64,000 bases of DNA from Blasia pusilla (lineage: Eukaryota): the NCBI GenBank assembly GCA_050084515.1, contig CM114271.1:36828001-36892000 (forward strand), written 5' to 3'. Each line of letters opens with the position of its first letter. Within the stretch, counting starts at the first letter, position 1. Shown piece by piece: positions 23,864 to 62,400 of this stretch. Made by a program: the position numbers and the translations under genes. Under the pieces are notes generated by a model that was not told the DNA's origin, did no database searches, and was given only the letters and a program-made list of their open reading frames with translations.

Positions 23864-24019
<156 letters not shown>

Positions 24020-31157: not shown

Positions 31158-31240
<83 letters not shown>
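31158..31240. repeat. Compound (TA)n(GA)n microsatellite
   Basis: Directly visible. Confidence 0.98.
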
Positions 31241-31243
<3 letters not shown>

Positions 31244-31508
31244 GAGATTTTATGTGTATATATAAATGAATATATGAAGGGCTAAAATAACGTACTATGA
31301 GTTAACAAGTTTTTGAATGTGAAGAATTATACCTTTGTTTATGGCTTTTTACCCCTTTTCGCATACACACTAAACCTTAACAACACCTTAGAGCAATCTT
31401 CAAGACTCAATTGCTACAGCTGCTCGCTAGGTTATATTCTTTCAATGTCTCTCACTCTCCAAAATTGTCAACAAATTTGATCACGTTTGAACTTGCCTTG
31501 CCTCATCC

Positions 31509-31645: not shown

Positions 31646-32058
31646 CTTTGACTCATATATGACTTGGCACCTTGCCCTCATCTTACCCTCTCCCTTTGCT
31701 CTCGAAAACCAAGAGGACCCTCCTCTCTTACTCTCCCACCAATTGCACCATAGTGATCTTCTCCATCCCTCCTCCTAACATGCAAGAGACTTTAATGCAA
31801 TTGTTAGAGTGAGCCCTTAGGATGAAGCGATCCTTAGTTTGAATCATAAATCACACCTAAATTTTTGTTGAAGTGCTACTACTCTTCTACTTCACTTTTA
31901 ATCTCTCTTGCCGGGTTCCGTTTGGCCTCTAAACTTGAGCCGTAACCCCTCGTAGTTGCAACTCTCATGTTTACAAGCTCGCCCTGAACTCGAGACTCTG
32001 ACCCTCCCCTCCTCGTTGCCGCTCTCCCTTCTACAAGCTCTCTTGCTTACCTCTCCTA

Positions 32059-32541
32059 TGTCACAACTTTTTAGGATAGATCGGAGAGATTTGGTAGAGC
32101 GCCTTTGCAAGTAGAGGAGGATAGGTTCAGCAAGTCAAGGATGACTTGTTGAGGTCATGGGAAACCTGAGACAGCAGGCTTCCCCTTTGTTTCGGCTCAT
32201 GAGGAGCCATATAGAGAAACTTATTATTTTGGGTAAGTTCCCATGTTTAGTAGAGTTGACTCTCTACTTTGGGAAGTGGCCTTTGACTGGTTACCGTAGG
32301 TCAAGAGCCAAGGAGGTGACTTGCAGGTTATTGAGGAGAGAGCTTGGGAGAGGGAAGGGGATATACCTCAAGGAGAGAGAGTTTGAGAGCTCATTCTCTC
32401 TTTTTTGAAGCTCTTGGCATGAGGCGGCAAAGCTATGATCTTGCTTGCCTTGTGAGTGTAACCCAAGCCTCTCATCAGGCGAGTGGGTTTGGTTTGACAT
32501 TGAGAGAGACATGTGAGAGTGCACACATTCGAGAGCTTATG
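32059..32541 (+). repeat. Terminal repeat A1 (~480 bp) of element B/D
   Basis: Aligns by eye with the reverse complements of ~45110-45562 and ~54080-54548; similarity stops after gagagct(t)atg. Confidence 0.9.
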
Positions 32542-33910: not shown

Positions 33911-35400
33911 ATGAGTTTCATCACGGCGTCCTTTCGGAACTTTGAGAGTCAAGGTGGTGGACCTGAGAGTAGCTCTAGAGGGTTTAGCTACAGTGGTGCA
34001 AGGTTTCAAGGATCTCCACGTAAGAGACCACATCGATCTCCTTGTGTGTCGTCTTCAGACGAGGGGGAAAGTGTAGAGGAGTGTGTTAGTGATCCACCCC
34101 ACACATTGAGTGGTCCTACCAATTGAGCGTACAAGATGGACGATCAGGATAGAGGAACGCGTAGGTTTTCGGGTGCTATAGGCACTATAGTGCTACACGA
34201 CTTCATCGCGGAGTTTAGGAGTTGGTTGAACTCTAGAGGTTCAACTCGTTTACATCATGGAACCGTATGTTCCAGCATTTAGAGGGAGCACCCATGGATG
34301 ATTACCATGAGTTCTCACAGAGATATACCCATGAGATTGAGGTTTGGAGACTCTACTATGACCCACACTATGTGTTAGCAGTTTCTCGATGAGGAGGAGG
34401 AGTGAGGAGAGGGTTCCTCCACCAGTGATGTTGTAGGAGGGATGACTTGCACTAGAGCAATTGCATCGTCTAGTCCACTTCGTACCATGTTCAACACCGT
34501 GGTTGAGTTCTTCGCTGAGTTGAGGGCGAGCTACCAGGGGTACGGACGGAGAAGTTACGAAGCATCCACGACTTCCAGAGGCGCATGGGTGAGAGTTTGC
34601 GTGAGGCCTACATCCACTTGCACCGATTGATTAACGTCACTCAGGGGCACACAGAGGCTCAGGCTATCCAAATCATGGTACGCGATGTTGGGCCGGACCC
34701 AGCGGACATGTGTGCGGGAGGGGATGCTTCTATTGAACACCTCCCCTACGTTGAAAGATGTTTTTAGGACCTCCAAGAACATTGAGTGCAACATGGGGGA
34801 GGAGACTGTAGCCACCATGGGTTCTAGGCGAGAGTAGTCACGATTTCCTGCACCACCAATGTAGCAAAGTGGATTCCGAGATAGGTCTATGGCACCATGA
34901 GCTCAGGGAGGATATCGAGAGGTCGTGCCATAGAGACATGCGCCTTCATATGCGGCTCAGCAGCAACTACCTCGAATTACTTGTTTGTCATTTGGTGGAG
35001 CCCATCATCAACGCGATTACAGTTATTAGGGTCATGGTCGCGTGCCTTTGCATGGAGAAGGAGATGGTGCTGCACCAAAAGTTTATCAGTGTGACTATTG
35101 TTAGAGGTACGATGACACACGCGCTAGGTGTTTGAGCTTGCACATTGAGTTACGTTCGGACCGAGGGTCATAGAGGGCACTCAAGCGAGATGCTTGTCCG
35201 GGTTGGCCAATAGGTCGTGCACTAGGTGGTCCCGTTGGGGGACGAGGAGTTGGATTTTCCTGAGGGGATGGTGGAGTTGCCCATGGAGGAGGTAGAGTCC
35301 CACCACCCACACGCGTTGAGGGAGACGCCCGGCGTGAGGCTGGGATGGCTGCTTAGATCCATTAGCTACAGCTGTAGATTGCCGCTATGGCATTGAGGTT
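33911..35400 (+). pseudogene. gag of element B (disrupted)
   Basis: MSFITASFRNFESQ start; Retrotrans_gag-like segment EKLRSIHDFQRRMGESLREAY; degenerate CxxC...C knuckle near 35090-35135 followed by a Gly/Arg-rich tract. Confidence 0.65.
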
Positions 35401-36339
35401 ACCTGATGCCGGATCCGTGGCATCGACGTCTTATGGAGCCGCCAGAGATATGGAGGATCTTGGTTGGATATGCGGGATTGCCTAGATGGAGGCCGCTGTA
35501 GTTGTTACGCGTGGAGCAACCGCAGAGTTGGATCCACAACAAGGGGAAGCCATGAAATAGACCAAGATACCTCAGTCCTTCAAGTTATCCGAGGCGATGA
35601 GCACCCCATCGATGGATCATGGTCAGAGTTCCTGGAGAGTTGGTGATGTTGTTGATGTGCAGGCACGGAGGGCGATGGGAAAAGTGAGTGCTACGACTTC
35701 TATTGCTGATGCTGAGGAGGAGCATGTGTTGAGCACATTGTTGGGGGCGGCCATTGTTGTGTACCGTGCTCCTTTATTTTCTACTTCCAATGTTATGACG
35801 TTGGGAGGTATGCCCGAGGAGGTTTTCTGGCTGGTTGCTACGCTATGTGAGCGTGGAGTTGGAGTTTCTGCATCACATTTAGAGGTGATTGCAGAGGAGG
35901 TGATGGACTTGCCCTTAGAGCTGATGCTCGGGCTGTCCACGTCATATTCATGGTAGACTACGACTGCTAGGATAGCGGAGATGCCCACTAGACCGGCGAT
36001 AGAGCATGTCATGGTGTTGTTTTGCAGTTGGAGAGTCGAGGAGGTTGTCACATCTGAGTAGCCGATAGGCCCAAATCTATCATGGATAGGGCGTAGGAGC
36101 CAACAGACTATCTTGAGTGTAACTTTGTCCCACGGTGTCGGACGACGTTCTGACAACATGAAAGTTGTCAGAAACGACGTTCCATTGTGTCAGGAACGTC
36201 ATTTCTGACAACTTTCATGTTGAGGTCTTTTACAGCCGGGTGACTTGTTGACCAGGTCACCCGCCCCGGGTAACCTGTGCGCGCAGGTTACCAAGGGAAG
36301 GGCTATTTTTAGGGGAAGAGCCTTTTGGCTCTTCCCAAC

Positions 36340-36352
36340 CCTATATAAGAGA
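36340..36352 (+). promoter_or_regulatory. TATA box in the 5' terminal region of element C
   Basis: CCTATATAAGAG ~300 bp inside the 5' end, flanked by hairpins. Confidence 0.6.
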
Positions 36353-37976
36353 GGAAGATGGCTTTCCTAAGCCATCTTTCTCATGTTGGGCCGTTGGAGC
36401 ACCTCCCTTGCATGTGTGTGAGCTAGGACTAGGGTGCTAGCGTCCGGATTCCTTGATAGCACAGGGTGGACGAGGCTCGATATGCCGATGTAGATTGAGG
36501 AGTGGAGTTTTAGGCCGGGTGTGCCATTTTTACTACTCTTTATTTAGGGTGACCATTGCCACAGATATGGTCACACTAGGGATAGATGTTTTGACCTTCG
36601 CCGAGGGGCACGTCTAGAGGTAGGCAGGGGGTCTGGGGGCGGTCGTCCTGGAGGAGGTCGGGGAGTTCTTCCTGGACGTGGTGGTAGAGGACCACCACCA
36701 CCCAGAGGAGATGGAGCAGGAGTACCAGAGCCGGCACTTCTCTCACACATCGATCAGTTGGAGCAGAGGTTTGCTGCCATGACGATGATGCAGCTTAGGA
36801 AGGCACGGACTGCGGCGCCTAGTGTGACTCAACTTCTACCTCTTACCCGACCCGGGTGAGGATCTCTCTCAAGATGGGATTCATGTGTAGTGCAAGCCCA
36901 GGTTGAGGCAGGTTGGCAAAGTGGTGACTGGGAAGTCTGCGAGAGGCACTGAGCCATCGAGAGGTGGAGTTGAGATTGACCCACTAGAGGGGACCGATGG
37001 GCGGGGAGGCCAGGGTTCCACAGTCGTTCACATTGTTGGAGGTACTACACACACCATCGATGGTGCCTCGACGACCAGCGGTGCCTACAGTTCAAGCACC
37101 TACGTCGACGTCACGAGGAGTTGGAGTGACAACTCCTATGCCGGCTCGAGTGGATTCACTGTCGACTATAGTGTTGGAGGTGGCCACTAGAGTGAGTCAG
37201 ACTCCGCTATTTTCCGCCATAGAGTTGGCGACGATGGGAGTTGGACCAACTAAGGTATTCCGGTTGGCCGCCACGTTGTGTGAGCGTGGAGAGATTACTG
37301 CTTCTTGTTCAGAGGTAGTTGAGGAGGTGGTGGACTTGCCCTCAGAGCCGGTGATTGGGACGTTCCCCACAGAGTCATGGCATACGGCGGCGGCAAAGTT
37401 GGTAGATATGCCAGCTCGACCGGCCATAGAGCGGCAAAGTGGTGACACTGGAGTAGTGTTATTGGATAACCGAAAGTGGAGTATTTCGCTTGGTTAGTCC
37501 GATGGGGGGTATACCACCCAGCCGGCCAGCGTCCTACTTGATTCAGGAGCGCAACCCTTGATGTTAGGGAAGGCGGCGTGTTTAGCGTTGGGGTTACGGA
37601 AGGCCGACATTGAGCTTTGTCCCTTCCAGATACAGACCTCGATTGGGGGCATATCACCCACTCAGTATATGACTCGACAGGAGATTGTTGTCAGAGTCTA
37701 GCCAGAGCATGCGACGGATAGTGCTATGGTGCGCACCCCTGCAATTACGACACCAGCTGAGTCGTATGATGTGTTGGTGGGGAGTACAGTGTTACATCCC
37801 CTAGGATTCATCCTTGACTTTTGGGAGGAGACCGTTGCTTATCGGCGAGGATGGCGGTCAGGTGACGCCCGGATGAGTCAGTTACCGTGCAATTTGCGGG
37901 ATGAGATGGTCGATCACGAGGCGAGTCTGTGACCACGTTGGCAGCTTTCACATGTAGTGTTAGCTGACCAGGAGAG

Positions 37977-39467
37977 TTGTTGGAGGGGAACGCACATGCG
38001 GAGGATGTCCCAGTAGCGGATAGTCCCACGGAGAGACAGGCCATGGCGGGTGTCTCTTCCCATGTTAGCGATGCCTCTTCACCATTATGGGGTACGACTC
38101 AAGAGCTACAGAGGAGTGCCGACGACCTCGTGAGGCAGGCGTGGAGTCATGTTTTTATCCCAGAGCAGCAAGAGTCACGTGGCAATCGGGCTCTTGGAGT
38201 GGAGACGATGACCCCACTAGATACCACACCTGTTGTGTGGCAGTTCCCAGAGGAGGGTGTGAGGGTGTTAGATCTCTTCGGAGGGATTAAGACCGGATTG
38301 GTTGCCATATTGCAGGCGGGCATACGGGTGCATCAGTACCTTTATGTGGAGAGAGATGAGACCGCGCAGCGAGTATCATTACGTTACGTGGCGAGATTGG
38401 TCTTGAGGTATCCTGAGTTGTTGTCGGTATTTGCAGTACGGGGATACCAGCATATGCTACCCGCCGACATCTCTTTGGTGGGGCCGCAGGATCTGGATAG
38501 AGTTGGCACCATTCATTTGGTGATTCTTTGGATGGCCATGTCGGGTCATTCATCAAGAAGGCGAGGATTTGGATTGCAGGATCCGAGGTCATGGATGTTT
38601 TGGGAGATGCTGCGAGTAGTACGACACTTGCAGGAGAGTCAGATATGTTCTCCTGCGTACATTTTGGAGAACGTGGCATTGTTGGGAGACACTCGTGCAC
38701 CTATGATGACGAGTGTACATCAGGTGAGGTCCTCGTTGGGACCTGCTGTGTTGTTAGATGCAGCGAGAGTTGGGTCACGTGCCCATCGTCCACGACTGTG
38801 GTGGACGAACCTGATACCATCACAGGTACTGAGTCGAGCATACAGTGGAGTCCAGAGAGCACCACATCTCACGGTGGATGCTATTTTGGGCTCAGGGCGT
38901 CGGTCTCAGGTGGTGACACGCGATGATAGACCACCGTTGGCCACGGCCAATAGGGTGGGGGAGTTGAGGGCATCCTTACCTACGTTGGTGAGCTTCCCAG
39001 CATCCCATGCCTTTTGTCAGGGAGGGCCAGGCATGATTTGGAATGAGGTGACCGGAGCATTGGAGGAGCCTACAGCAGATGAGCGCGAGCGCGCCATGGG
39101 GTTCACCACCGATACTACGGCGGTGCCACGGATGACTGAGGCATCACGGAGACAGATGTTGGGGCAGGCGATGGACCTCAATTGTCTCACATGGATAATC
39201 AGCCTAGGTATGGCTGAGCAGAGACGGATGCGAGTGTCATCCATGCCGTCACGTCCACGAGTTGGACCATTGCCTACAGGGTCTGTACAGGCATTGGCTG
39301 GGGGCGAGACGAGGAGAGATAGGCACCCATGGACTTCCTGGGACGTCGTTCGAGCAGAGAGTGCGAAGGCGGCTAGAGAAGCACATATTCATTTTTCAGA
39401 TGTGGAGCATGGTGTAGGAGGTCAGAGTGGAGTGGCTATTGCAGAGGTGGCTAGGGTTGCTACATAG
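37977..39467 (+). CDS. DNMT3-like C5-cytosine DNA methyltransferase domain within the retroelement polyprotein (catalytic motif IV locally out of frame)
   Basis: Motif I VRVLDLFGGI; II YLYVERD; IV GWPC in a shifted frame at 38530-38541; VI YILENV; VIII LLDAARVGSRAHRPRLWWTNL; IX ERERAMGF; X RRQMLGQAMD. The order and wording parallel the DNMT3 catalytic domain (IRVLSLFDGI, GGSPC, LFENV, AAHRARYFWGNL, EMERVFGF, RQRLLGRSW). Confidence 0.92.
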   Translation: MLEGNAHAEDVPVADSPTERQAMAGVSSHVSDASSPLWGTTQELQRSADDLVRQAWSHVFIPEQQESRGNRALGVETMTPLDTTPVVWQFPEEGVRVLDLFGGIKTGLVAILQAGIRVHQYLYVERDETAQRVSLRYVARLVLRYPELLSVFAVRGYQHMLPADISLVGPQDLDRVGTIHLVILWMAMSGHSSRRRGFGLQDPRSWMFWEMLRVVRHLQESQICSPAYILENVALLGDTRAPMMTSVHQVRSSLGPAVLLDAARVGSRAHRPRLWWTNLIPSQVLSRAYSGVQRAPHLTVDAILGSGRRSQVVTRDDRPPLATANRVGELRASLPTLVSFPASHAFCQGGPGMIWNEVTGALEEPTADERERAMGFTTDTTAVPRMTEASRRQMLGQAMDLNCLTWIISLGMAEQRRMRVSSMPSRPRVGPLPTGSVQALAGGETRRDRHPWTSWDVVRAESAKAAREAHIHFSDVEHGVGGQSGVAIAEVARVAT

Positions 39468-39599
39468 CAACCAAAGCCGGAGGTTGCGTCCTCTGCCAGT
39501 GAGGTCACGATGGAGACTTGGGAGCCTGTGATAGGTCTCAAGTTGATAGGAGGAGAGCGACGGCGAGTTCATAGATTTCTGAGAGGGCATGTCAGTTGT

Positions 39600-40905
39600 T
39601 TTGCCTTCAGTATGAGAGACTTGGGTACGCTGAAGGGTCATGGTATACGGATTGAGTTGGCTAGTGATACGCCGGTCTTTCGTCGACCCTACAGGTATTC
39701 TGATATGGAGCGAGCCTTGATTGAGATCAGGAGTCATGACTTGTGGAGTTATCACATGGGGAGTATGCATCTGCCACAGTCATGCCGACGAAGAAGGATA
39801 TGTATGGCAATTGGACGGATATGCGGATGTGTGGAGATTACCGTCCTATCAACCGACAGACGAGGTCAGATCGCCACGCCATGCCTACTCGTGAGGAGAT
39901 CTTTGATGTGGTAGGGCATGCAAAGATCTTCAGTACATAAGATCTCCGTGTTGGCTATCATCAGCTTCCTATCAGGTTGGAGGACAGGGAGAAGAGAGCA
40001 TTATGGGGGATAGATCGATTCGGGAGAGATTGCTAATATCAGTGGCGGTTCTTACCATTTGGGTTGAAGAACGCGCCTGCGGAGTTTCAGAGAGTGATGG
40101 ATAGGATTCTGGCTGGCTTGGATTTTGTACGATGTTACATAGATGATATTCTTATCTTTAGTTCCACGGTTGAGGAGCATGAGCGACACTTGGAGGAGGT
40201 GTTTCGGGCGATTGATTACATGGACTGAAGTTACATCCAGGCAAGTGCAGATTCTTTCAAGAGCAGATTGAGTACTTGGGACACACCATATACCCGAGTG
40301 GGTTAGGCGTTCAGCAGACAAAGGTAGAGGCTATTGCGCAGATTCCACGCCCTACAGATGTGAGTCGAGTCCGAGCATTTCTTGGACTGGCGAACTTCTA
40401 TCGACGGTATGTCAAGGATTTTAGTGCGATCGCAAAGTCTTTGACCTTGTTGACGAGTCTTGATCATGTTTGGTTTTGGGGAGATGATTAGGAGCGAGCA
40501 TTTCAGGAGCTCAAGGACAGGTTGACGTCCTCACCCATTTTACAGAGACCGGTTAGGGGTCGCCCATTCCAGTTACATATGGATTGGAGCATGTTGGGTC
40601 TAGGAGCAGTGCTTACTCAGAGGGATGATGAGGAGAGGGAGTTCGTTGTGGCTTACGCGAGCCGATCGAACAACATTGTAGAGGCAAAGTACAGCTCCTA
40701 CGAGGGAGAGTGCTTGGCTGCAGTATGGGCCGTGGCACATTTTAGGTGCTATTTATTCGGCAACCCTCTCACACTTATCATTGATCATCAACCGTTGAGG
40801 TGGTTGATGGAGTCCCACAAGCTTATGAGAAAGCTTGCCAGGTGGGCTCTATTACTACAGGAGTATGAGTTTGAGGTGGTTTATAGGCCAAGTCGCATGA
40901 ACTAG
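39600..40905 (+). pseudogene. Ty3/gypsy reverse transcriptase and RNase H of element C
   Basis: RMCGDYRPIN, GYHQL, LPFGLKNAPAEFQRVMD, YIDDILIFS, VRAFLGLANFYRRYV; RNase H FQLHMDWS...GLGAVLTQ...VAYASR...YEGECLAAVWAV...DHQPL. Several stops and frameshifts. Confidence 0.95.
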
Positions 40906-41254
40906 GATGCGGATGGGTTGAGTCGTAACCCATGTCCGAGTCAGAGAGACGACACAGGAGCTCGATGGCACGGAGAGAGTGATGAGGAGATGGTGCTCGG
41001 TTGGCATGCATCTGCCTATCTTTGTTGGTTGACTATGGCAGGTCAGCCACAGGTGATGACTCCATTGGTGGGATTGGATGATGAGTCTTTGGATCGGGAG
41101 GTTAGTGAGGAGGCGACAGGTGGTCGTGATATCCATGACGACGTGGAGGTTGTGGAGTTCTTGCGATTTGGCGTCATTGTAGTGAAGTGAGTGCTAGGGA
41201 GCGGATCGGATCCCTGAGAGAGCCAAGAGGTTCAGGTGGGAGGGGACTCACATT

Positions 41255-42544
41255 TTGCGGGTATGGGGAGATGGTAGGATACGAGTGGTACCTCATCCTT
41301 CCCAGCGAGCACGTGTAGTGCGACATGCTCATGAGGAGTTGAGACATTTTGGAGTAAAGCGTACTTACAACTTACCCAGGTTCGATATTGGTGGCGCGGC
41401 ATGCATCTTTGGGAATCTGTTGTTTGTGGCGGATGTATGGTATGTGACAGAGTGCGAGCATCCTTCAATGCTTCCACTCCGCAGTTACATCCTTTGCCGA
41501 TTATCGATTTAGGTTATCGGTGGAGTTTAGACTTAACGGGACCTTTGCCATTGACAGGGCGTCATCATAGGTACGTGTTGGTCATGGTGGAGCATTTCTC
41601 CAAGTGGATAGAGTTGGTGGCACTACCGGACAAAGCGGCGAGGAACGGCTTATGCATTTCTAGATCGTGTGCTTAGTCACTTTGGTGCACCGGCGGAGGT
41701 GTTGACTGACCAAGGTACTGAGTTCAGGGGAGAGTTTCAGGCCTTGTGTGATCAGGCGCTGATAGATCACCGCACCACCTCCAGAGATCATCCTGAGGCG
41801 GATGGGTTGGCGGAGAGAGTGGTACAGACGGTGAAGAGAGGATTACGCAAGTATACGTGCGATTGAGGGAGTGGGATGTTGCCATGGTTGGCTATGGGTT
41901 ATCGCTTTAGTCGCGCGCAATTGTGCGCCATGTCATCTTCGAACGAAGATGGGGACGGTGGATCCGAGCTTGGCGCGATGGTACATCCAGGCTTGAGTTG
42001 TATGTTGTGCGGATCTGGTAGCCACCATGTTGGTATGTGATCGAGGCTTATGCATTTCTAGATCGTGTGCTTAGTCACTTTGGTGCACCGGCGGAGGTGT
42101 TGCGACCATGTCATCTTGAGTTCAGGGAGAGTTCAGGCCTTGTGTGATCGGGGCCGATAGATCACCGCACCACCTCGAGAGATCATCTGAGGCGGATGGG
42201 TTGGCGGAGAGAGTGGCCAGGCGGTGAAGAGAGGATTACGCAAGTATGGCTTGCAGCGGGTACAGTTGAGGGAGTGGGACCTACAGTTGCCATGGTTGGC
42301 TATGGGTTATCGCTTTAGTCGACGCAATTGTGCGCCATGTCATCTTCCGAACGTAGATGGGACGGTGGATCCGAGCTTGGCAGTGGTACCTGCAGGCTTG
42401 AGTTGTATGTTGTGTGGATCTACGAGGGGTGCAGCCACCATGTTGGTATGTGATGGTTGTTCTCGAGGGTGGCATATGTCATGTCTGACCCCCCCTCTTG
42501 ATGTGGTTCCCACGGGACGATGGATGTGTCTGAGTTGTGTATAG
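41255..42544 (+). pseudogene. DDE integrase with C-terminal PHD finger, element C
   Basis: HHCC (AHEELRHFG...CMVC), WSLDLTGPLP, VLTDQGTEF, HPEADGLAERVVQTVK; PHD CMLC...LVCDGCSRGWHMSCLTPPL..VPTGRWMCLSC. Confidence 0.92.
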
Positions 42545-42762
42545 GGTAGTAGGTCATGTCAGAGAGATGTGATATTTTCTATCTGGAGTTAGGGGGATCA
42601 AACTGCCAGCTAGGGGGGCAGTTGTGTGATCTCCATGTGTATGTATGAGTTGATTTTTGTACATGTGTGGATCGACCCGTGTGCGGGGAAGATCGGTGTT
42701 GTGTGGTGTAGATGTGACGAGCGATGTATGTTGTGTAGCGATATATATGCGCACGACAAGGT

Positions 42763-44201
42763 AGAGCTTTTAGTCCGCAGCGCATCTTCTTGGATTCAGG
42801 AGCGCAACCCCTATTGTTGGGGAAAACGACATTTAGAGGATTGGGCTTGACCAGAGCCGATGTGGAGCGTTGTCCATTCCGGATACATACATCCTTGGTT
42901 GGAGCAAGTACCACACACTATATCACCCAACATGAGGTTGTGGTAAGGATTCACGATGGACATCCTACAAATGAGTCTGTGGTGCGAGCCAAGGTGATAG
43001 TGATTGATGCAGAGACCTACAATGTCTTGGTTGGTGGAGTAGTGTTGTACGCTATGGGGTTTTCGTGGATTATTGGGAGGAGTCGTAGACCAAGATGGCA
43101 ATCTGGTGATGGATGACTTTGTTCATTCCCCGTTTGATTCACAAGTGTAGTGATCGAGCGGCGGCCATAAGAGATGGCGACCTAAGCAGCATTTAGCAAC
43201 GCCATCACTTGGCCTAGTGATTTGATTGAGGGACATGTCCATGCTGAGGATAATCCCATTCCTGATATTTCTATAGAGAGGAGTGTCATGGTCTCCGCAT
43301 CAATCCGTAGAGGAGAGGTGCCGCTTTGGGGCTCAACTGAGGAGCTTCGACGTTTAGCCACTGAGCATGTGCAGATCGCGTGGAGCGAGACATTTACACC
43401 AGAGCGTGACGGGTCATAGGAACCAAAGGTATCCGAGAGTGCTACTATGACCCCTTTGGACACCACCCCGATTGTGTGGTGCATTCCAAATGAGGGTCTT
43501 CGCGTGTTAGATGTCTTTGGCGAGATTAGCACTGGTTTAGCTTTTTTTTTACATGCATGAGTACACGTGCATCAGTACTTGGATATGGAGATTGATAATG
43601 TTGCGAGGCGCGCTTTACTTCACCATGTGGCGTAGTTACGCCTCCATTTTTCGGCCTTGTTCTTTGCGTCCGCTGTCCCGGGATATCATAGTTTCCTACC
43701 GAGGGATATTTCATTGCTAGGGGTGTAGGACTTGGAGCGAGTAGGGACCATAGACTTGGTCATTTATGGTTGGCCGTGTTAGGGCCAATGGAGTGTTGAC
43801 TCTTGATCCAGGTTATTTTGGGAGATGATGCGGATTTTGTGACACTTGCAGGAGCATCAGTTCCGTTCTCCAGCATACATTATAAAGAATGTGCCGAACC
43901 TAGGAGATTTGAGGTCACGGGTGGTGACAAGTGCACATCATGTGCGTGCATGGATCGGCTCAGTAGTGTTTTTGGATGCGGCGAGTGTAGTGTAGGTTTT
44001 GGAGCTCACCGCCCCCATCTTTGGTGGACCAACTTGGTGCCACATGAGGTGTTGCAGAGGGCATATGCGCGAGTGGAGCGCCCCATTGATTTGTTGGTGG
44101 ATTCCATTCTGGATCCAGGTCGTCGATCATAGACGGTGAGGCATGATGATAGACCGCCGTTGACTGTGGTGAAGAGGATTGGCGTGCCACAAGCAGCCTT
44201 G
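42763..44201 (+). pseudogene. Protease and DNMT motifs I-VIII of element B
   Basis: FLDSGAQPLLLG; GLRVLDVFGEISTGL (~43495); IDLVIYGWPC*G (~43750-43785); YIIKNV; AHRPHLWWTNL. Confidence 0.88.
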
Positions 44202-44429
44202 GAATGAGAAAGAGATAATTATATTATAATAAAAATTTAAATAAAGAATATTTATTTTGACAATCCACATTCAATTATAAAATTAGCATCATTTGAGAGG
44301 ACATCGATAATATGGAATACTTTCAATACATAATAATAATAATATAGCTACTATTTGATCTAGTCACAAACAAGTATTAAACCTACTAAAATAAAATAGT
44401 ATTAAAAAAATAAAATATTAGATATGTGA

Positions 44430-44430
<1 letters not shown>

Positions 44431-44468
<38 letters not shown>
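44431..44468. repeat. (AAT)n microsatellite
   Basis: Directly visible within an AT-rich block. Confidence 0.95.
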
Positions 44469-44470
<2 letters not shown>

Positions 44471-44952
44471 TCAGAAAAAAAAGTGAACCAGAAAAATATG
44501 TTAAAAAAAAAGAGAGTAATAAGATGGAAATCTTGAATACAAAACTCTCAATGATAAATAATATCATGTATAAATAGTAAATATTTGATAAAACAATAAT
44601 AAAAAAATCCAAAAACAAAAAAAAATCCATGTTTGGACAACAACAACCTTAAGTATATCATAAATAGGCAAAATTTAATCATTAAAAAAATAAAATTATT
44701 CACACATAATAATTTTAAATAAGAAATAATTACCTAATGGTGTTTTAAAGTTTCTAATCCAACAAGATAACAAATAAAGCTTGAGTACTAATTTGTATGT
44801 TTAAAAAAATATTAAAATAAAGTCCAAAAACTAAATTATCTAAGGCAGTGAGAACGAAGTCTATAGAGCACGGTATAAGATTGTACGTGAACGAAGAGAG
44901 GCCATGGCGTGACATGTTAAGGCGTGAGCAAAGAGCATGTGAAGGAAGTAGG

Positions 44953-45675
44953 TGTCGTGCGTATATACATTGCTACATAAAATACATAATTGTCGACAAA
45001 CATACACACAAACACACACAATCCGATGCTAACTCATGGCATCCAAAAACGAGACAAGAATAATAAAATATCTCCAATAAATCAAGTAGATCCAATCTCT
45101 CTTAACACCATAGCTCTCAAATATGTGCACTCTCACGTGTCTCTCTCAATGTCAAACCAAAGCCACTCTCTTAATGAGAGGCTTGGGTTACACTCACAAG
45201 GCAAGCAAGACCATAGCTCCGCCATCTCATGCCAAGAGCTTCAACAAAGAGAGAATGAGCTCTCAATCTTTCTCTCCTTGAGGTATACCCCCTTCCCTTT
45301 CCCAAGCTCTCTCCTCGATAACCTATGCTCGCAGGTCACCTCTTTGACTCTTGACATGCTGTAGCGGGTCAAGGGACAACTATAATAAATATGGAAACTT
45401 ATCCAAAATAGCAAGTCTCTCTATATGGCTCCAAATCAGCCGAAACGAAGGGGAAGTCTGATGTCTCAGATTTCCCGAGACGTCAGTAGGTTATCCTTGA
45501 CCTCCTCTACTCGCGAAGGTGCTCTATCAAATCTCTCCGATCTATCCTAAAAAGTCATGATAAGTGTCGTGCGCATACACATCGCTCTTGAAAAATATAC
45601 ACATAAATACGCACAACCCCATGCTAACTCATGACATCCAAACAACGAGACAAGAAGTACCAAAATATTTCCAAT
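44953..45675 (-). repeat. 3' split-repeat block of B/D: B1 (45565-45675), A2 (~45110-45562), B2 (44953-45078)
   Basis: Two copies of a ~110-128 bp B segment bracket one A segment. Confidence 0.9.
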
Positions 45676-48600
45676 CGCCCATCTAGTTGGTGGTTAGGTC
45701 CCTCTAACTCCAAATAGCCATCTATCCGAATCTACAATGACATACATCTCTCAAACGCTAGGAGAAAAGAGGTTGGGTGTTGATGTGGCCCCATTTTTGT
45801 CGTCTTCTTGTCATTAATGTCAGAGACACAAGTCGAAGTCTAGAACTACCTACCCTATGTAAATGTGGGACACATTTATCATCCTTAGGAACCCTAGTGA
45901 GAGGTGGTGTCAGACATGCCATATGCCACCCTCTCGAACACCCATCATAGACTAGCATAGTGGCTACACCACACCCGAAACCACATAACATACATTGCAA
46001 GTATGCACGAACTACTACTAAGATTGGATCAATTGTAGCGTCAATGTTAGAAAGGTGACATGGCGCACAATTACGCACATGGTCCTTTCAAACCATACCA
46101 TCGCGTACCTCCAATAAGAGAACACAGATGGCAAAATCTCATGATGGTGCGCCTTGTAGTCACACCCACCGTTGTAGGTGCCGTATGTTGCAAGTAGACA
46201 TAGTCTCCTTCATGAAACCTCCGGATAGAAGGTCGATAACCACCTCCCCAAATAGTTGTATACCTCAATATATCCTGATGCTGCATAATCGCAAAGTTCT
46301 CAAACGCCATGGGCATCACTCTCCGAAACAACTCAGCCCTCTAAGAACATGCTCGTATCCATACATCATGGTCATCAAGGTTCAACACCTCACCAACATC
46401 TTGACAAATGGCCGCATGTAAATATGGCTCTCGGCCATAAAGCAACAAGTATGGTGAAAAAGACGCTAAGGATGCCTGCCTGCCTGTTGAATCTGTATCC
46501 CATCGCCAAGTATGGCACCTAAAGGTCCCAATCTCTTAGCTGACCTCTTCGCAAGCCATACTTGCGTAATCATCTCTTCACTATCTGCACAACCCTCTCC
46601 GCTAGTCCATCCGCCTCGGGATGATCTTGCAAAGTGGTGCATTAGTCGATCAGCGCTTGATCACACAAGGCTTCAAACTGCCTACGAAAATCAGTACCCT
46701 GGTCTCTCAACACCTCAATTGTTGCGTCGTAATGACTCAACACTCGATCTAGGAAGACATACGCTACTCCCTCACTCGCTTTGTCAAGAAATGCAACCAA
46801 CTCTATCCACTTTGAGAAATGCTCGACAATCAACAACACATAAGGACTCATCAAAGGCAAAGGTCCTAAAAATCATCAAAGGCTAAAAGGACTGCAACTG
46901 TGGAGTCGAAGTATTGAACATGTGTCTCCTAGCGACACCTGGATGCCTCGCCAAACTCGTTTGTTTCACTCCAAAATGACCCAACCGCCGTGGGCATGAC
47001 GCACCAAACGTGCTCTTTACAAAGGGATCCAATCCGCATCCTCCTAGCATCCTCTTTGCTCGCAGGATCCAATCCCGCTCTCTAGCATCCTCTTTGCTCG
47101 CGACACTGCTAGTACACAGGTACTCTGAGACCACTCCATTGTCATGAATGCCTCGACCACTTGTCGTCTCCTCACCGGCCTCTTCATCTAAGGACTCTCC
47201 ATCAGACCTCGCCATCGAAGTCTCAGCAATCTAGCTCTCCATAGCCAACAAGCCCAAATAGGCTAAGGTATGTCATCGTGGCACCAACTTCTCGTCGCTC
47301 TCGCCATGCCAACCAGCTTCAATCACATCTCCTTGACTCAAGCATGGGTTATGTCCCAAACCATCTGCATTCTAGTTGAGTATCTAAGGTCTACGCACCA
47401 CCTGGAAGTCATACTCCATCAACCACGTAAGTGGCTAATGATCTGTAATAATGGTGAAGGGATTGCCGAATAAATAACATGTGAAATGTGCAACAGCCCA
47501 CACCTCAGCCAAGCACTCACCCTCATACAAGCTATACTTTGCCTTTGTAGCGTTGTTCAAGCGACTAGCATAAGCCACCACGAACTCTCTACCATCATCG
47601 CCATGTTGGGTGAGCACGGCTCCAAGCCCCAACATGCTCCAATCAATATGCAACTGGAAAGGACGCCCCTTGATTGGTCTCCTCAATATGTGCGTGGACA
47701 TCAAATTGTCCTTGAGCAGCTGAAATGCTTTCTCCTACTCATCCTCCCATTGCCACTCCTGATCCACCTTGGTCAGCAAGGTTAGCGACTTTGCAATCAA
47801 TACGTACCATCGATAGAAGTTCGCCAGTCCCATGAATGCACGAACTCGACTCACATCTGTAGGGCGTGGAATGCCTGAAATAGCCTCTACCTTCGTTTGG
47901 TGCATACCGACGCCCCTTGGGTATATCGTATGACCCAAGTACTCGCTCTGGTCGTAGAAGAACTTGCCCTTGCCTGGATGTAGCTTCAACCCATGTTACG
48001 ATAATCATCGAAACACCTCCTCTAGATGTCGCTCATGCTCCTCAAGCGTGGCGCTAAAGACTACGATGTCATCAATATAACACCTATAAAAATCTAGACC
48101 TGCCAAGATCCTATCCATGACCCTCTGAAACTGAGTTGTGGCTTTCCTTAAACCGAATGGTAAGAATCGCCACTAGTACAAGCAATCCTTCCCATTAGGA
48201 TTGATACCCCAAAATGTCATCTTCTGCTTGTCCTTCAATCTGATAGACAACTAATGGTATCCGACTCGCAAATCCAATGAACTGAAGACTTTTGCATGCC
48301 CAATCGCATCAAAGATCTCCTCAGGGGTGGGCATGGCATACGTGTCGGACTTTGTTTGCCAATTGATAGGTTGGTCATCTCCACACATCCGCCTATCTGT
48401 CCAATTGCCATGCACATCCTTCTTGGCGAGCATGATAGTGGCAGATGCATACTCTCCGTACGACATCTCTACTAGTCCTACTCCGACAAAGTCTTGGCTC
48501 CTACTCTGAATCACAGCCCTCTCAATGTCACTATTCCTCTAGGGTCATCGGAAGATCGGCGTGTCACTTGACAACTTAATGTGGATCCCTGGACCCTTCA

Positions 48601-49288
48601 ACGTAACCAAATCCTACATGCTAAATGCAAAATAGCTCCTATGACTCCATAGGAACTGATGTATCTGGCGCCGCTCTCCTCCTGTCAACTTAGGGCCCAT
48701 GTCTGGCTCCCAAGTCTCCATTATGACTGCGGTAGGACTCTCCAACGCGGGTGTAGGTGGTTGCTATGATGCAACCCCGTTTCGAAAAACGGAACTCGAC
48801 TGCTCTCTTGCAGCCAACTGCAAAATTTGATCTCCATGTGCAATATCTGGAACCATGCTCGATGTTGTGGCTACCATCTCTTGGCGTACCTACAAAATAT
48901 CCCAAGAAGTCCAGGGGTCTCTCTCCTGATCACCCCTGGTGTATCAATCTCCTCGGGTCTTGCCCCCAACCACTGCCTCAACCGTCTCGGTAGGCATGGG
49001 GCTCACCGACGCAACAGTTGTGATATGTCGCATCCTCAAACGATGTTGCTCAGCTACTCCTAAGCTGAAAATCCATGTCAAGCAATTCAGGTCCATCGCC
49101 CGATCCAAGATATGATGTCGTGATGCTTGTGAAAGTGACGGTTTTATCGTCACTCTTGTGGAAAATCCCATCGCTTGCTCACGCTCATCGGCATTGGGCT
49201 CCACCAACCTGTGTATCTGGTCATCCCAAACCAAGCCAGGCCCGGCCTCCTTGAATGCATATGAAGCAGGGAAACTCACCAATGTGGC
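44953..49288 (-). mobile_element. DNMT-gypsy segment D (3' half of element B, inverted): DNMT C-terminus, RT, RNase H, INT, PHD, B1-A2-B2
   Basis: Begins at TLVSFPASYAF...EREQAMGF...HILDRAMDLNCL. ORFs 48251-48514 (RT), 47435-47704 (RNase H), 46642-46860 (INT), 45758-46078 (PHD). Ends in ...CACGACA followed by CCTA. Confidence 0.92.
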
Positions 49289-53920: not shown

Positions 53921-54678
53921 TGTCGTGCGCATACACATCGCAACACAACATACATCGTTGTCACCGAACACACACACAAACACGCACGATCCCATGCTAA
54001 CCTATGGCATCCAAACAACGAGACAAGAAGTACCAAAATATCTCCAATTAAAGTAAGATCCAATCTCTCTCACAACACCATAGTTCTCACATGTCTCTCT
54101 CAACATCAAACCAGACCCACTTTCATAATGAGAGGCTTGGGTTACACACACAAGACAAGCAAGACCATAGCTCCGCCGCCTCATGCCAAGAGGTTCAACA
54201 AAGAGAGGATGAGCTCTCAAGCTCTCTCTCCTTGAGATATACCTCTCCCCTCTCCCAAGCTCTCTCCATGATAACCTATGCTCCCAAGTCACCTCCTTGG
54301 TTGTTGACATGATGTAGGAGGTCAAGGGCCACTTACAAAAAATAGAAAGTCAGTAACATACTCAAAATGGTACTTACCTAAAATAGTAAGTTCTCAATAT
54401 GGCTCCAAATGAGCCGAAACGAAGGGGAAACCTTTCTCTCAGGTTTCCCAGGGCCTGAGTAGGTCATACTCGGCCTACTGAGTCTGTCCTCCGCTACTCA
54501 CGAAGGCGCTCTACTAGATCTCATCGATCTATCCTAAGAGACGTGACAGTTATCGTGCACATACACATCGCTACACAACATACATCGATATCACCGAACA
54601 CACACACAAACACGCACGATCCTATGCTAACTCATGGCATCCAAACAACGACACAAGAAGTACCAAAATATCTCCAAT
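53921..54678 (-). repeat. 3' split-repeat block of E: B1 (54551-54678), A2 (~54080-54548), B2 (53921-54048)
   Basis: Near-identical 128-bp B copies flank A; purine tract ACTAGGGGGGCG lies immediately before B1. Confidence 0.93.
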
Positions 54679-54858
54679 CGCCCCCCTAGTTGGTAGTTAG
54701 GTCCCTCTAACTCCAGATAGCCATCTATCCCTACCTACGATGACATACATCTCTCGGACGCTAAGAGCAAGAAGATTGGGTGTTCATATGGCCCCATCGT
54801 TAGTCGCCTTCTTGTCATCCATGTCACAGACACAAGTCAAAATGTAGAACTACCTACT

Positions 54859-55909
54859 CTATGTACATTTGGGACACATCCATCGTCCCTTAGGAACCCT
54901 AGTGAGAGGTGGCGTCAAACATGCCATATGCCATCCTCTCGAACACCCATCATAAACTAGCATAGTGGCTGCACCACGGGCGGAACCACACAACATACAC
55001 CGCAAGCCTGCATGAACTATTGCTAAGCTCGGATCAAGTGTACCATCAATGTTCGGAACAGTTACGCACATGGTCCTTCCAAATCATACCATCGCGTCCC
55101 TCCAATAAGAGAACACCGGATGGCAAAACCGCACGCACTCTCAAGATGGTGCGCCTTGCAGTCACATCCAACGTCGTGGGTGCCATCTGCTGCAAGTAGA
55201 CATAGTCTCCTTGATGAAACCTCCAGATAGTAGGTCGATAACCACCTCCCCGAATAGTCGCATACCTTAACGTATCCCGATGTTGCGCAATCGCCAAGTT
55301 CTCAAACGCCATGGGCATCACTCTCCAAAACAACTCAGTCCTCTCAGAACATGCTCGCATCCATACATCATGGTCATCAAGGTTCAACGCCTCACTAGTA
55401 TCTCGATGAATGGCCGTAGGTAAATCTGCCTCACGGCCATAAAGCAACAAGTACGGTGAGAAAGACGCTAAGGATGCCTGCCTGCTGAATCTGTATCCCA
55501 TCGCCAACCACGGAAACTGAAGGTTCCAATCTCCTAGGTGACCTCTCTGCAAGCCATAGTTACGTTGTCCTCTCTTCACCGTCTGCACAACCCGCTCCGC
55601 TAGTCCATCCGCCTCAGGATGATCTCGCGAAGTAGTGCGGTGGTCGATTAGTGCCTGATCACACAAGGCCTGAAACTCCCTGCGGAACTCTGTACCCTGG
55701 TCTGTCAACACCTCAGCTAGTGCGCCGTAATGACTCAGCATTCGATCTAGGAAGGCATACGCTACTCCCTCACTCGCTTTGTCAGGCAATGCAACCAACT
55801 CTATCCACTTCGAGAAGTACTCGACCATCATCAATACATAACGACTATAGCGCTCCGTCAAAGGCAAAGGTCCTGCAAAATCCAAACTCCATCTATAACC
55901 TAAACCCAT
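54859..55909 (-). pseudogene. Integrase core plus PHD finger of copy E
   Basis: WSLDFAGPLP, VEYFSKW, VLTDQGTEF, ADGLAERVVQTVK, SPYLLLYGRE; PHD CMLC...WHMACLTPPLTRVPKGRWMCPKC after a small frameshift. Confidence 0.92.
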
Positions 55910-58900
55910 GATGGGAAGTGTTGTGGAGTTGCAGCATTGAACGATGCTCAGACTCGATCACACACCATGCATCTTGCAACAAACTGCTGAACGTCAGTCT
56001 GCATGCCTTGCCACCAATACTAAATCTAGAGCAAGCTATATGTCCGCTTCATTCCAAAATGACCAAAATCCTCATGGGCATGACGCACCAAACGTGCTCT
56101 CTACGAAGGATGAGGCACTACACCCACTCTACCATCCTCCCACACTCGTAACACATGTATCCCCTCCCAACGGAACCGTCTAGCCCGCTATAGGACCCGA
56201 TCCCGCTCTCTAGCACCCACTGTGCTCGTAACGCTGCCAGTACGCAGATACTCCAAGACTACTCCATCATCGTGAATATCTCGACCACCTATCGTCTCCT
56301 CACTGGCCTCGGGATCTAAGGACTCTCCATCAGACCTCACTATCAAAGTCTCCACACTCTGGCTCTCCATGGCCAACAAGCCTAAATAGGTTGACGCGTG
56401 CCATTCCGGCACTGACTCCTCATCACTCTCTCCATGCCATCGAGCTCTTGTTGTATCTCGGTGACTCAGGCATGGGTTACGACTCAGCCCATCTGCATCT
56501 TGGTTGAGCGTCCCAGGTCTATGAACCACCTGAAAATCGTACTCCTGCAGCAATAGAGCCCATCTCGCAAGCTTCCCTATAAGCTTGTTGGACTCCATCA
56601 ACCACTTTAGTGGTTGATGATCAGTGATGATGGTAAAGGGGTTTCCAAATAAGTGACACCTGAAATGTGCGACAACTCACACCGCAGCCAAGCACTCACC
56701 CTCATACGAGTTGTACTTTGCCTCTACAACGTTGTTCGAACAGCTAGCTCACCCATTGTGGCACGACATGCAACATAAAATCCACATGGCAAGAATGTAT
56801 TATGTAGTATCTATATGGATGCCTTACTCTAGTTTCCAGGTTACGGAGAGCACCTGACTCCTACGATAGTGGATGATGTATGGCATGGATGGAAGACTCA
56901 TAACCAAGTCTTCTCCAACCATGATATCCTAGCAAAAATTAATGGTAAGTTCCTCAAACTCTCAATAGGATTTAATACAATCTCTTGTATTTAGTCATTT
57001 CACAAAAGAGATTAACTCTACATTGTGTGTATGGTATAACATGAGATGCGGCATATGCATCCTTATGGACCCCGTTTGGAGGAGGAGAAACGAGGACAAC
57101 ACATGTTTATGTTGATCGGCATAGATAATCCTCTATCCTTCTACAATAAAGGAATTGATTATTTAGAGAACCTCTTTATTTGCGAGATGGATTCTGGAGG
57201 AGGACGAGGAGACCTTATAAAGTGTACACCCACCAGCTCTAAGATAGAGTAGGATGCCCTGGTTGGATAGTGCTTTCAATGGATGTATACTAAAAAAAGA
57301 AGAAGATGCATATGCATGTAAATCCAAAATCATCTCCTTGTCGCTCTCTCCATGTCATTGAACTCCTTTCTTATCTCTTTGATTTGTACATGGATAGCAA
57401 CTCAACCCATCTACTTCTTGGTTCAACCAACATGGCCCATGAACCATGTAAAACCATATTCATATAGTAATAGAGTCCACGTGCCAACCTTACGTACAAA
57501 CTTTTATGCTACGCTCTCGAAAGTGATATACACTCAAACTCACTCATAATAGCCATGCTTTGGATCAACGAGCATTGCTTCTCCCGAGTTTGCATCTCGT
57601 GTCATCCCTCAAACTCAACAATCCTAAACAAGCTCATATACCAACTTAAACCTCGCTCCCTAAGACATGTAGGCCATTCAAGAAGCGGGACAAACTTCCT
57701 TCATAATATAGGGATATAAAATTATACCAGTATGCTTGATGACCACGACTTTCCGATGGACCTTGAACGAGTCTCTAATCAGACCTCGAAATTGGTGTCC
57801 AAATGCAAGGCTCGATGTTAGGAGTGAGAACTGGATTAGATGGACTTAACTTCGTATCAACCTCAATGCTAACTTTTTAGTCCATGTTGTTGCCTTGGAT
57901 CGACCTCGCAATCACCAAGGTGGATTTAGGCCTCAAAATTCCTTTGGAGATCCTCCCCTTTTTTTTCTTAGAGAATTGAACAACATATTCTCCTACAAAT
58001 CCCTTTTGGATTGCCCCACGTGGTCCTTAAACCCAAACAATGATTTTGATAATTGAAGCCCTACTTGAATAGTTTTTATTTTTATTTGTGGTGTGTTGTA
58101 ACTAGCTCCTCACAACTTTTCCAACACCACCTCGTTCATCATAAACAAATATTTGATGTAATGACCACGACCTCAACGCGGAAAACCACTACAAGATAGG
58201 TTCAAATTTCTCCAGAGTCTATCTTTTTTGGGACTTGAACTGTTTTTACGTTCTAGTTGGTTAGCGTCCTTCTTGCTTACAACTACTATCATTCTAGATG
58301 CCCATTTAATCTTGGGTCTCGCCTCTACAACTCTTGCCTCGTTTGCGAGACTTCGACGTATTTCCATCATAGTGAAAGCCATTAGAGTTGTGACGATCCG
58401 CATTGGTGTAGTTTGGTCATGGAAATTGCTATATCTAAAAAGTCTTATAGTGAGTAATGCTACTTGCTTAGCCTCAAATATGCAACATTCTAAACTTTAT
58501 AAATTCAACATTGTTATAAGACTTTACACTATCCAACAAATTACCAAAAATAGTCATATCTCCTAATCATTTCGGGTCTATTTTCCATGTCTGTAGTCCT
58601 CTTTACGATATTAGGATCTGTTATAAAAAAAATTGTATTTGTCACCCCCAACGATCCAATGCATTTAATAGGAATTAAGTTGCAGTATAGAAAAATCATA
58701 GTTTTGTGATTAATTATGATTCGGAACATTTTTTTTTTCAAGTTAAATATAGCTATTTGGACTTCCCACAAAACCTCTAGTTTATAATTGATTGATCACT
58801 AGTAACCAACCCAAATATCAACATTAATACCTTACGGTGAGAAAGGAATGAAACTAACCACACATGCTTGTTCTATTGATAGTTAACATATCCCATTATA

Positions 58901-62370: not shown

Positions 62371-62400
62371 GTATCCTCTTATCTTTTCTTTTCGGCAGCT

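Follow-up and report, generated by a model that had tools for sequence, protein, structure and literature searches.

A nest of decayed Gypsy-type retrotransposons carrying a DNMT3-like methyltransferase frame in Pol, probably of the streptophyte Gypsy-DNMT3 kind

In the alga Klebsormidium nitens, elements known as KnitGypsy-Dnmt3 carry intron-less Dnmt3-related domains within the Pol frame of a Gypsy retrotransposon, with a ratio of nonsynonymous to synonymous change (Ka/Ks) below 0.2, and these domains are placed as a divergent Dnmt3-related clade in the published tree (de Mendoza et al. 2018, PMC5890265). In the Fig. 4c legend of that paper, the repeats of KnitGypsy-Dnmt3 are assigned to a DIRS element and its domains to Gypsy. 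For another described element, SymbioDIRS-Dnmt3 of Symbiodinium, CG de novo methylation was shown in yeast in the same source (PMC5890265). Two later papers give only "streptophytes" as hosts of Gypsy-DNMT3, one of them a preprint (10.64898/2026.05.21.726589) that refers to "streptophytes (Gypsy-DNMT3)". No description of DNMT-bearing retrotransposons in bryophytes or chlorophytes was found in the full-text literature, a search that had supplements and most subscription journals outside its reach. In this article, a 64,000-nucleotide stretch of Blasia pusilla (assembly GCA_050084515.1, contig CM114271.1, positions 36,828,001 to 36,892,000), referred to as the window, is analyzed with emphasis on a retrotransposon copy designated element C (36046-42758), in which a frame resembling a DNMT3-type cytosine methyltransferase had been flagged.

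The locus is a pile-up of decayed, nested copies of one retrotransposon family, and the overall interpretation offered here, that this is the streptophyte Gypsy-DNMT3 family, with self-methylation and PHD-guided integration as the presumed habits of its live members, is considered probable. The coding part of element C consists of the following features.

36548-37497, + strand: CCHC zinc-knuckle stretch and C-terminal gag; CHRYGHTRDRC matches the P0030 knuckle in an alignment, and residues 464 onward of the Marchantia protein P0051 align at 36988.
37498-37932, + strand: aspartic protease with LLDSGAQ and an in-frame stop at 37699-37701; relatives have Asp_protease_2 at the same place.
37968-39464, + strand: DNMT3-like cytosine-5 (C5) methyltransferase frame of 499 codons, stop-free, catalytically dead.
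38530-38541, + strand: GWPC codons (motif IV), in a different frame from the surrounding open reading frame (ORF).
39468-40491, + strand: reverse transcriptase (RT; RVT_1, 4e-15), broken by the stop at 39465-39467 and by two frame changes.
40492-40905, + strand: RNase H (RT_RNaseH, 9e-33).
41198-41866, + strand: integrase with H2C2 finger and DDE core, broken across three frames.
42404-42541, + strand: PHD finger behind the integrase (PF00628, 1e-10).

The original prediction had placed the DNMT domain after the protease and before the RT, and this placement is borne out by the LLDSGAQ frame upstream (37498-37932) and an RVT_1 match at 40037-40225 downstream. The 37968-39464 frame matches the DNMT3A catalytic domain at an expectation value (E) of 1.3e-5 (phmmer against PDB), and its PDB matches, with E values from 1.3e-5 to 0.05, are confined to DNMT3A, DNMT3B and DNMT3C, apart from a single unrelated row (E 0.92). 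The list of C5-methyltransferase motifs claimed for this region stands in part. The alignment with DNMT3A spans motif I VLDLFGGIKTGL, motif VI ILENV, motif VIII SRAHRPRLWWTNL and a C-terminal block (ERERAMGF...LGQAMD), and comparison with DNMT3A and the relatives finds motifs I (FxGxG), VI (ENV) and VIII (RxR) as LDLFGGIKTG, ILENV and RAHRPRLWW, respectively, whereas motif IV lies out of frame and reads HLVILWMAMSGHSSRR (ILWMAMSGH) where the relatives have DLVIAGWPCQGHTRAG (AGWPCQGH). The frame shift around the GWPC codons (from 38530) is short, and the original ORF frame resumes afterwards.

The search with Pfam PF00145 that had been suggested as a check gave E 0.15 and 11.9 bits for the window frame, below the 22-bit cut-off and not significant. 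Five of the seven scanned relatives pass the same cut-off with 30.5-36.9 bits, on profile positions 58-120, and the K. nitens protein P0103 reaches 58.4 bits; the weak score of the window frame is attributable to the out-of-frame motif IV, since the relatives score on exactly that part of the model. The best relative of the window frame was retrieved at E 3.6e-167 with 58% identity. The remainder of element C is similarly damaged, with in-frame stops at 37495, 37699, 37930, 39465, 40489, 40903 and 41188, and with frame changes between protease and DNMT, twice in the RT and three times in the integrase. The integrase is recognized by Pfam with Integrase_H2C2 at E 0.001 and rve at 6e-7 (30.2 bits, just under the cut-off of 32.6), and four of the ten window pieces scanned, namely the CCHC stretch, the gag C-terminus, the protease and the RT N-terminus, returned no Pfam family. 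Copy C is therefore non-functional, with motif IV out of frame, stops or frame changes in protease, RT, RNase H and integrase, and parts missing.

The assignment of the motifs to the DNMT3 type is upheld by profile rank, motif order and fold comparison. A profile of the family ranked DNMT3A first among PDB sequences (1.2e-21), followed by DNMT3B/3C (approximately 1.5e-19), plant DRM (7.5e-13 to 2e-10), DNMT2 (2e-7) and M.HhaI (3e-5), and neither DNMT1 nor chromomethylase occurred among the 52 PDB sequences at E<=0.01. The motifs follow the order I, IV, VI, VIII, X, so the domain is not permuted, unlike DRM. An AlphaFold model of the intact relative P0005 (predicted local distance difference test, pLDDT, 65; predicted template modelling score, pTM, 0.68) was compared with known folds by Foldseek, and among the matches listed, ranks to 50 were all DNMT3A, 3B or 3C, the best at E 8.6e-13 with template modelling (TM) scores of 0.46/0.56. 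The predicted pol-borne methyltransferase is thus DNMT3-like by sequence and modelled fold. It resembles the catalytic domain of mammalian DNMT3A/3B, its best match in both respects, in having motifs I, IV, VI, VIII and X in the same order, but the identity is only about 20-24%, and the domain of the window family lies within a retrotransposon polyprotein without PWWP or ADD; Pfam found neither of these two domains in full-length relatives, in which a PHD finger is present behind the integrase instead.

That the DNMT is a trait of the family rather than a chance insertion, as originally proposed, is confirmed by its relatives. The near-length relatives of the window frame number 49, including named sequences from Calypogeia fissa, Marchantia polymorpha, Riccia sorocarpa, four Sphagnum species and Closterium, and there are 20 longer relatives, 14 of which are Marchantia gene models, some combining PF00145 with RVT_1 and RNase H. 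A profile built from 17 DNMT domains retrieved 9099 representatives at E<=1e-3, 2071 at <=1e-10 and 443 clusters at <=1e-30; the best 150 matches all lie at E<1e-63, and many of them are polyproteins of 1000-3456 residues. The DNMT shares one frame with protease and RT in proteins from Marchantia, Closterium, Klebsormidium and metagenomes, and in 21 of the 22 metagenome loci with a long unbroken RT match (80 loci in all) the RT lies approximately 510 nucleotides downstream of the DNMT. A protein atlas places a streptophyte PF00145 cluster at the top, followed by two clusters of phage methylases with an equal score.

The catalytic residues are retained across 159 distinct near-complete domains: the Cys of motif IV occurs in 156 domains; in motif VI, Glu occurs in 158 and Asn in 150; in motif VIII, one Arg occurs in 155 and the other in 156; and the Gly of motif I occurs in 151. 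In the 72 deep pairs, at dS 1-2, the ratio of nonsynonymous to synonymous substitution rates (dN/dS) comes to 0.21 for the DNMT, a rough value owing to dS saturation. The metagenome DNMT copies (L001-L080) are themselves mostly broken by stops and not by frame changes: only two of the 48 loci with an unbroken DNMT alignment are stop-free, and the stops total 208 (TAG 88, TGA 75, TAA 45). Such a distribution of breaks would be compatible with C-to-T change in methylated DNA as the route of decay.

The suggested likeness to charophyte elements (de Mendoza et al. 2018) is likewise supported, as a K. nitens protein with the order CCHC, protease, DNMT falls in the same DNMT clade and the repeat structure agrees. 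This protein, P0103, was identified as GAQ93235.1 by naming ten profile-search representatives; word-based protein searches brought up no Klebsormidium protein, and it was found only by that route. By Pfam it contains zf-CCHC at 297-313, a protease at 598-691 and the DNMT at 833-1149, and it may be one of the published KnitGypsy-Dnmt3 copies. P0005 and P0103 are 37% identical over 322 residues (E 4e-59).

A FastTree phylogeny of 175 near-complete domains separates two clades, each with a Shimodaira-Hasegawa (SH)-like support of 99. The first (49 rows) contains the window, Marchantia, Calypogeia, Closterium and K. nitens, together with all six proteins in which the DNMT precedes the RT, while the second (126 rows) contains all 103 proteins in which the DNMT lies between RNase H and integrase, Scenedesmus included (P0094, P0098, P0149 and about 100 others). 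A quick IQ-TREE search of 54 rows, rooted on the second clade, kept the first clade with an SH approximate likelihood ratio test (SH-aLRT) value of 97 and placed, outside a 28-row clade (97) formed by the window and the liverwort and moss sequences, first the group of K. nitens and then that of Closterium, with the basal nodes at only 87-89.

Compared with KnitGypsy-Dnmt3 (PMC5890265), the window family is alike in its DNMT3-type domain in a Gypsy Pol, the order CCHC gag, protease, DNMT, the DNMT clade, the DIRS-like repeats and a dN/dS below 1, but it is only about 37% identical in the DNMT (P0005 versus P0103), and its nearest named kin are liverwort and moss sequences, not algal ones; the PHD finger and the 4-base-pair target duplications of the window family receive no mention for KnitGypsy-Dnmt3 in the available part of PMC5890265. 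On the strength of its nearest named relatives, the window element is classified as a land-plant-type member of the known streptophyte Gypsy-DNMT3 kind. With SymbioDIRS-Dnmt3 it has in common a retrotransposon Pol with a DNMT3-type domain, but that element is built on a DIRS backbone and encodes a tyrosine recombinase, and its acquisition of the domain was independent in the view of its authors (PMC5890265). The sister clade includes chlorophyte pol proteins, namely the "pol" of Scenedesmus sp. PABB004 and proteins of Haematococcus lacustris, Monoraphidium neglectum and Chromochloris zofingiensis, all of which fall within it. They are alike in their homologous DNMT (profile E<1e-63), in the same types of RT, RNase H and integrase and in a PHD behind the integrase, but differ in that the DNMT lies between RNase H and integrase, the Pfam order being RT, RNase H, DNMT, integrase, PHD.

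By its predicted domain order, CCHC gag, protease, the inserted DNMT, RT, RNase H and an integrase with H2C2 finger and DDE core, the element is of Gypsy type. Its ends are organized differently, as shown first by element C, which carries the following features.

36042-36045, + strand: target-site duplication AGGT on the 5' side of C, recurring at 42759-42762.
36046-36545, + strand: terminal repeat A of C, which starts TGTCAC and contains the palindrome 36154-36222.
41647-42454, + strand: tandem duplication, with units 41647-42041 and 42045-42454 that are 86% identical.
42612-42758, + strand: purine tract AGGGGGG and then terminal repeat B, which ends GCACGACA, with no A2-B2 behind it.
42759-42762, + strand: target-site duplication AGGT on the 3' side of C, matching 36042-36045.

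Element C therefore begins with A and ends with B, without A2-B2, and it lacks the N-terminal gag because repeat A adjoins the CCHC stretch. The possibility that C is an end-less fragment was considered and ruled out by its own TGTCA...GACA termini and the AGGT duplication. The A...B structure could derive from recombination between B1 and B2. Position 36545 is joined directly to 42621, an A|B junction of other copies, by 4, 4 and 5 RNA reads and by 12 DNA contigs carrying the same species label. The palindrome within repeat A (36154-36222) is 69 nucleotides long and near-perfect (87%), and in one DNA run the contig depth over 36088-36675 is 10-15 times that of the coding part. The tandem duplication covers the end of the integrase core and is skipped by RNA reads from sister copies, which show the joint 41828>42222 (4 and 6 reads in two runs).

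In the fuller copies, the ends are split direct repeats of the form A1...B1-A2-B2, found in an older element, X, together with its inverted part, and in the metagenome loci L051, L074 and L078, and a B1-A2-B2 terminus is present in copy E, whose 5' part is missing. Behind the PHD of copies D and E (- strand), the order is a purine tract, B1, A2 and B2; in elements X and C and in L051, L074 and L078, an AGGGGGG run stands before the first B repeat. In the window, repeat A measures about 450-480 nucleotides and B about 85-125. A survey of repeats in the 13 metagenome loci of at least 11 kilobases (kb) recovered the full arrangement in three (L051, L074 and L078; A1 about 310-340 nucleotides, B1 about 115 nucleotides, followed by A2-B2, with a span of 9.1-9.2 kb); L005 and L062 have A1...A2 to the end of the locus, one has only B...B, and seven have neither. 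The junction of the B end with the A start is a near-palindrome.

Two identical long terminal repeats, as expected of Ty3/Gypsy elements, are not present, A1 standing on the left and B1-A2-B2 on the right; the termini TGTCA...GACA and the short target duplications agree with the TG...CA ends and target duplications of Ty3/Gypsy. The 4-base-pair flanks match in all five elements with both ends readable (CATA, AAGG and TCTC for L051, L074 and L078, respectively, CCTA for X and AGGT for C). No TGG-type tRNA primer-binding site was seen directly behind A1 in L051, L074 and L078 on inspection by eye, no systematic search being made. Pfam scans of full-length relatives detected no tyrosine recombinase, while rve and Integrase_H2C2 were found there. 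The 4-base-pair duplications, the DDE integrase and the lack of a recombinase domain in these scans together point to integrase-mediated insertion of a split-repeat unit. Split direct repeats of the order A1-B1-A2-B2 are known from the PAT and Ngaro tyrosine-recombinase elements (PMC4157794); the window family resembles these in its split direct repeats but has an H2C2 and DDE integrase and 4-base-pair duplications where they have a tyrosine recombinase.

Element C is nested in X, and the remaining copies of the family in the window are distributed as follows.

32055-32058, + strand: target-site duplication CCTA on the 5' side of X, matching 44949-44952 read on the - strand.
32059-32537, + strand: terminal repeat A1 of X, which starts TGTCAC and is about 80% identical to 45112-45555 (-) and 54085-54537 (-).
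34151-36019, + strand: gag of X, broken; tblastn with Marchantia P0051 aligns residues 9-199 and 395-607.
42763-44201, + strand: X resumed (copy B of the original prediction), with protease and the N-terminal two thirds of the DNMT, many stops.
44202-44952, no strand: AT-rich former 3' flank of X (GC 0.23), moved by inversion and ending in the CCTA duplication 44949-44952 (- strand).
44953-45675, - strand: 3' terminus of X, with B2 at 44953-45078, A2 at 45112-45560 and B1 at 45590-45675.
45850-49285, - strand: inverted 3' half of X (copy D of the original prediction), with the DNMT C-terminal third (49285-48833), RT, RNase H, integrase and PHD.
10961-14360, - strand: copy A, a more distant family member with gag, protease and faint DNMT remnants.
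53921-57417, - strand: copy E, lacking its 5' part, with RNase H, integrase and PHD and with the B1-A2-B2 terminus at 53921-54678.

The recurrence of the DNMT in copies A, B and D, which had been taken as separate occurrences, holds only partly. Copies B (43213-44201, +, with GWPC in frame and then a stop) and D (49285-48833, -) contain real DNMT pieces, but these are not independent, and copy A retains only faint remnants, at 11826-11626 (E 5e-4) and 11023-10961 (E 0.016) in a search space of 3.6 kb. The piece in copy B stops at residue 286 of the relative P0005 and that in copy D begins at residue 288, and this continuity together with the shared CCTA identifies B and D as one element, X. 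Marchantia P0051 (gag, protease, DNMT) maps by tblastn with residue 464 onward at 36988-39413, residue 627 onward at 42760-44201 and residue 1122 onward at 49285 (-). Element C was inserted into the older X between gag and protease, with the AGGT duplication, and the 3' part of X plus approximately 750 nucleotides of AT-rich flank (44202-49285) was later inverted. A reading of the repeats at 32066-32537 and 45112-45555 as inverted terminal repeats of the DIRS1 type was rejected, since the CCTA flank and the continuity at residues 286/288 identify them as A1 and the inverted A2 of X.

With regard to base composition, the elements in 36020-49285 have a GC content of 0.47-0.55 and a CpG observed/expected ratio of 0.68-0.75, and their surroundings 0.36-0.40 and 0.41-0.56, respectively; the CpG ratio of 58000-64000 is 0.90. 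Long dinucleotide microsatellites, all of one type, occur at 23866-24018, 31211-31247, 62404-62447 and 63055-63102.

A PHD finger stands behind the integrase in every window copy that reaches so far, at 42404-42541, 45872-46075 (-) and 54859-55083 (-), and also in the chlorophyte sister clade. Its best PDB matches are the second PHD of DPF2/DPF3, PHF12, CHD4, KAT6A, PHD1 of KDM5A/B, ATXR5, AIRE and PHF21A, at E 1e-14 to 1e-10. The PHD fingers matched here, such as those of DPF2/DPF3, PHF12 and CHD4, read the histone H3 tail with unmodified K4. Chromoviruses are Gypsy elements with a chromodomain on the integrase, and the window family resembles them in having a chromatin-reader module behind the integrase, presumably steering integration, but uses a PHD finger as the reader and additionally carries a chromatin writer, the DNMT.

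Concerning expression, 152, 158 and 170 RNA reads of at least 95% identity were found in three runs with the same species label. Most of them are 95-99% alike to the window and therefore stem mostly from sister copies. They are chiefly reads whose first mate lies on the minus strand, over 39.0-42.85 kb (RT to PHD), and a first mate on the minus strand indicates sense RNA in most stranded libraries. The data show low-level transcription of close relatives, with nothing firm for the DNMT part, which diverges faster.

From these features a mode of action may be proposed for live members of the family. In intact relatives, one gag-pol frame encodes, in order, CCHC gag, protease, DNMT3-type domain, RT, RNase H, integrase with H2C2 finger and DDE core, and PHD, so that the DNMT would be made as part of Pol. 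The enzyme may then act de novo on the new DNA of the element itself, either the cDNA or the fresh insertion and its surroundings, and the PHD on the integrase may direct insertion to nucleosomes that lack methylation on K4 of the H3 tail. A Pol-borne enzyme that methylates its own new DNA, combined with a PHD-bearing integrase that chooses H3K4-unmethylated chromatin, seems the likeliest course of events in live members, although it is held with slightly less than even confidence. Self-methylation by the Pol-borne enzyme was also proposed by the 2018 authors (PMC5890265).

Several observations weigh against the overall interpretation. The window copy itself falls below the PF00145 cut-off and lacks the in-frame catalytic Cys of motif IV, and the structure model of P0005 is of moderate confidence only. 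Identity between the window copies C and X is 48-57% in the DNMT and 59-81% in the RT (RNase H 64%, integrase 75-76%). In the 48 metagenome loci, the decayed DNMT copies that are close relatives of one another have a dN/dS of 0.57-0.71 at dS <0.6, as expected where recent change is mostly neutral decay following insertion; in the same pairs of the 13 loci with both domains, the RT is more constrained, at 0.37-0.45 versus 0.54-0.66 for the DNMT. RNA depth is zero over 37852-39027, within the DNMT, in all three runs. Furthermore, the Klebsormidium domain gave no methylation in yeast, a result that the authors considered inconclusive because human DNMT3B failed there too (PMC5890265).

That yeast experiment, the only assay of a family member, speaks for the view that the pol-borne domain is conserved but does not methylate DNA, acting instead on RNA, such as the genomic RNA or the primer, or serving as a binding or structural module in the particle. 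RNA methylation was raised in the same text as a possibility for another retrotransposon DNMT, and within the chlorophyte sister clade 68 of the 159 domains have ECQ at motif IV where PCQ is usual, an uncommon replacement of the conserved Pro. However, the assay is inconclusive by the authors' own control, the family profile gives a much stronger match to the DNA enzymes DNMT3A/3B (1e-21) than to DNMT2, a tRNA enzyme (2e-7), and all catalytic residues of DNA C5-methyltransferases are kept, which renders this view unlikely, if worth keeping in mind.

If the enzyme worked chiefly in trans, with the genome of the host or rival transposons as its targets, it could, for example, silence competitors or damp the copy number of the element to the advantage of the host. 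No sequence feature links the enzyme specifically to the DNA of its own element, slower transposition as a benefit to the host was raised in PMC5890265, and the damage to the window DNMT and the stops in 46 of the 48 metagenome loci (208 in all) fit heavy silencing and decay of the family; nevertheless, a domain embedded in Pol would be expected in small amounts and alongside the cDNA, and action in trans is accordingly considered improbable. That the DNMT is a passenger without a role for the element, either a captured piece of a host gene or a host DNMT3 pseudogene among transposon debris, might be suggested by the dead window copy below the Pfam cut-off and by the nest of rearranged repeats in which it lies, but is very improbable, being contradicted by the single frame with protease and RT in Marchantia, Closterium, Klebsormidium and metagenome proteins, the 443 clusters, the retained catalytic residues, the dN/dS of 0.21 between lineages and the position fixed in 21 of 22 loci.

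With self-methylation and PHD-guided integration retained as the preferred account, the window by itself is ordinary, consisting of dead, nested and rearranged copies, and the kind of element has been known since 2018; what is added here is its anatomy, its distribution in liverworts, mosses and a chlorophyte sister group, and the details of its integration. A broader proposal, put forward tentatively as a nearly balanced case, is that these elements constitute an old and largely overlooked retrotransposon superfamily of green plants that both writes and reads chromatin, with a DNMT3-type enzyme, a PHD finger of the unmodified-H3K4 type, split repeats and a DDE integrase, and that it comprises a streptophyte branch persisting vertically since before the colonization of land and a chlorophyte sister branch in which the DNMT has moved. 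The branching order of Klebsormidium, then Closterium, then liverworts and mosses fits such vertical persistence since before plants colonized land.

A transposon that carries a de novo methyltransferase presents a paradox, because cytosine methylation is the main means by which plants silence transposons. In the literature searched, the described case in the plant lineage has so far been confined to one alga. Split direct repeats that occur together with a DDE integrase and with target duplications also bear on the origin and replication of such repeat structures. What was a curiosity becomes a system open to experiment, as elements of this kind are also present in liverworts and mosses, some of them annotated as "hypothetical proteins" in the model Marchantia, and have a large sister group in green algae. 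Should their occurrence in land plants prove new to the literature, the many gene models of Marchantia polymorpha would provide a tractable model for why a transposon carries the silencing enzyme of its host.

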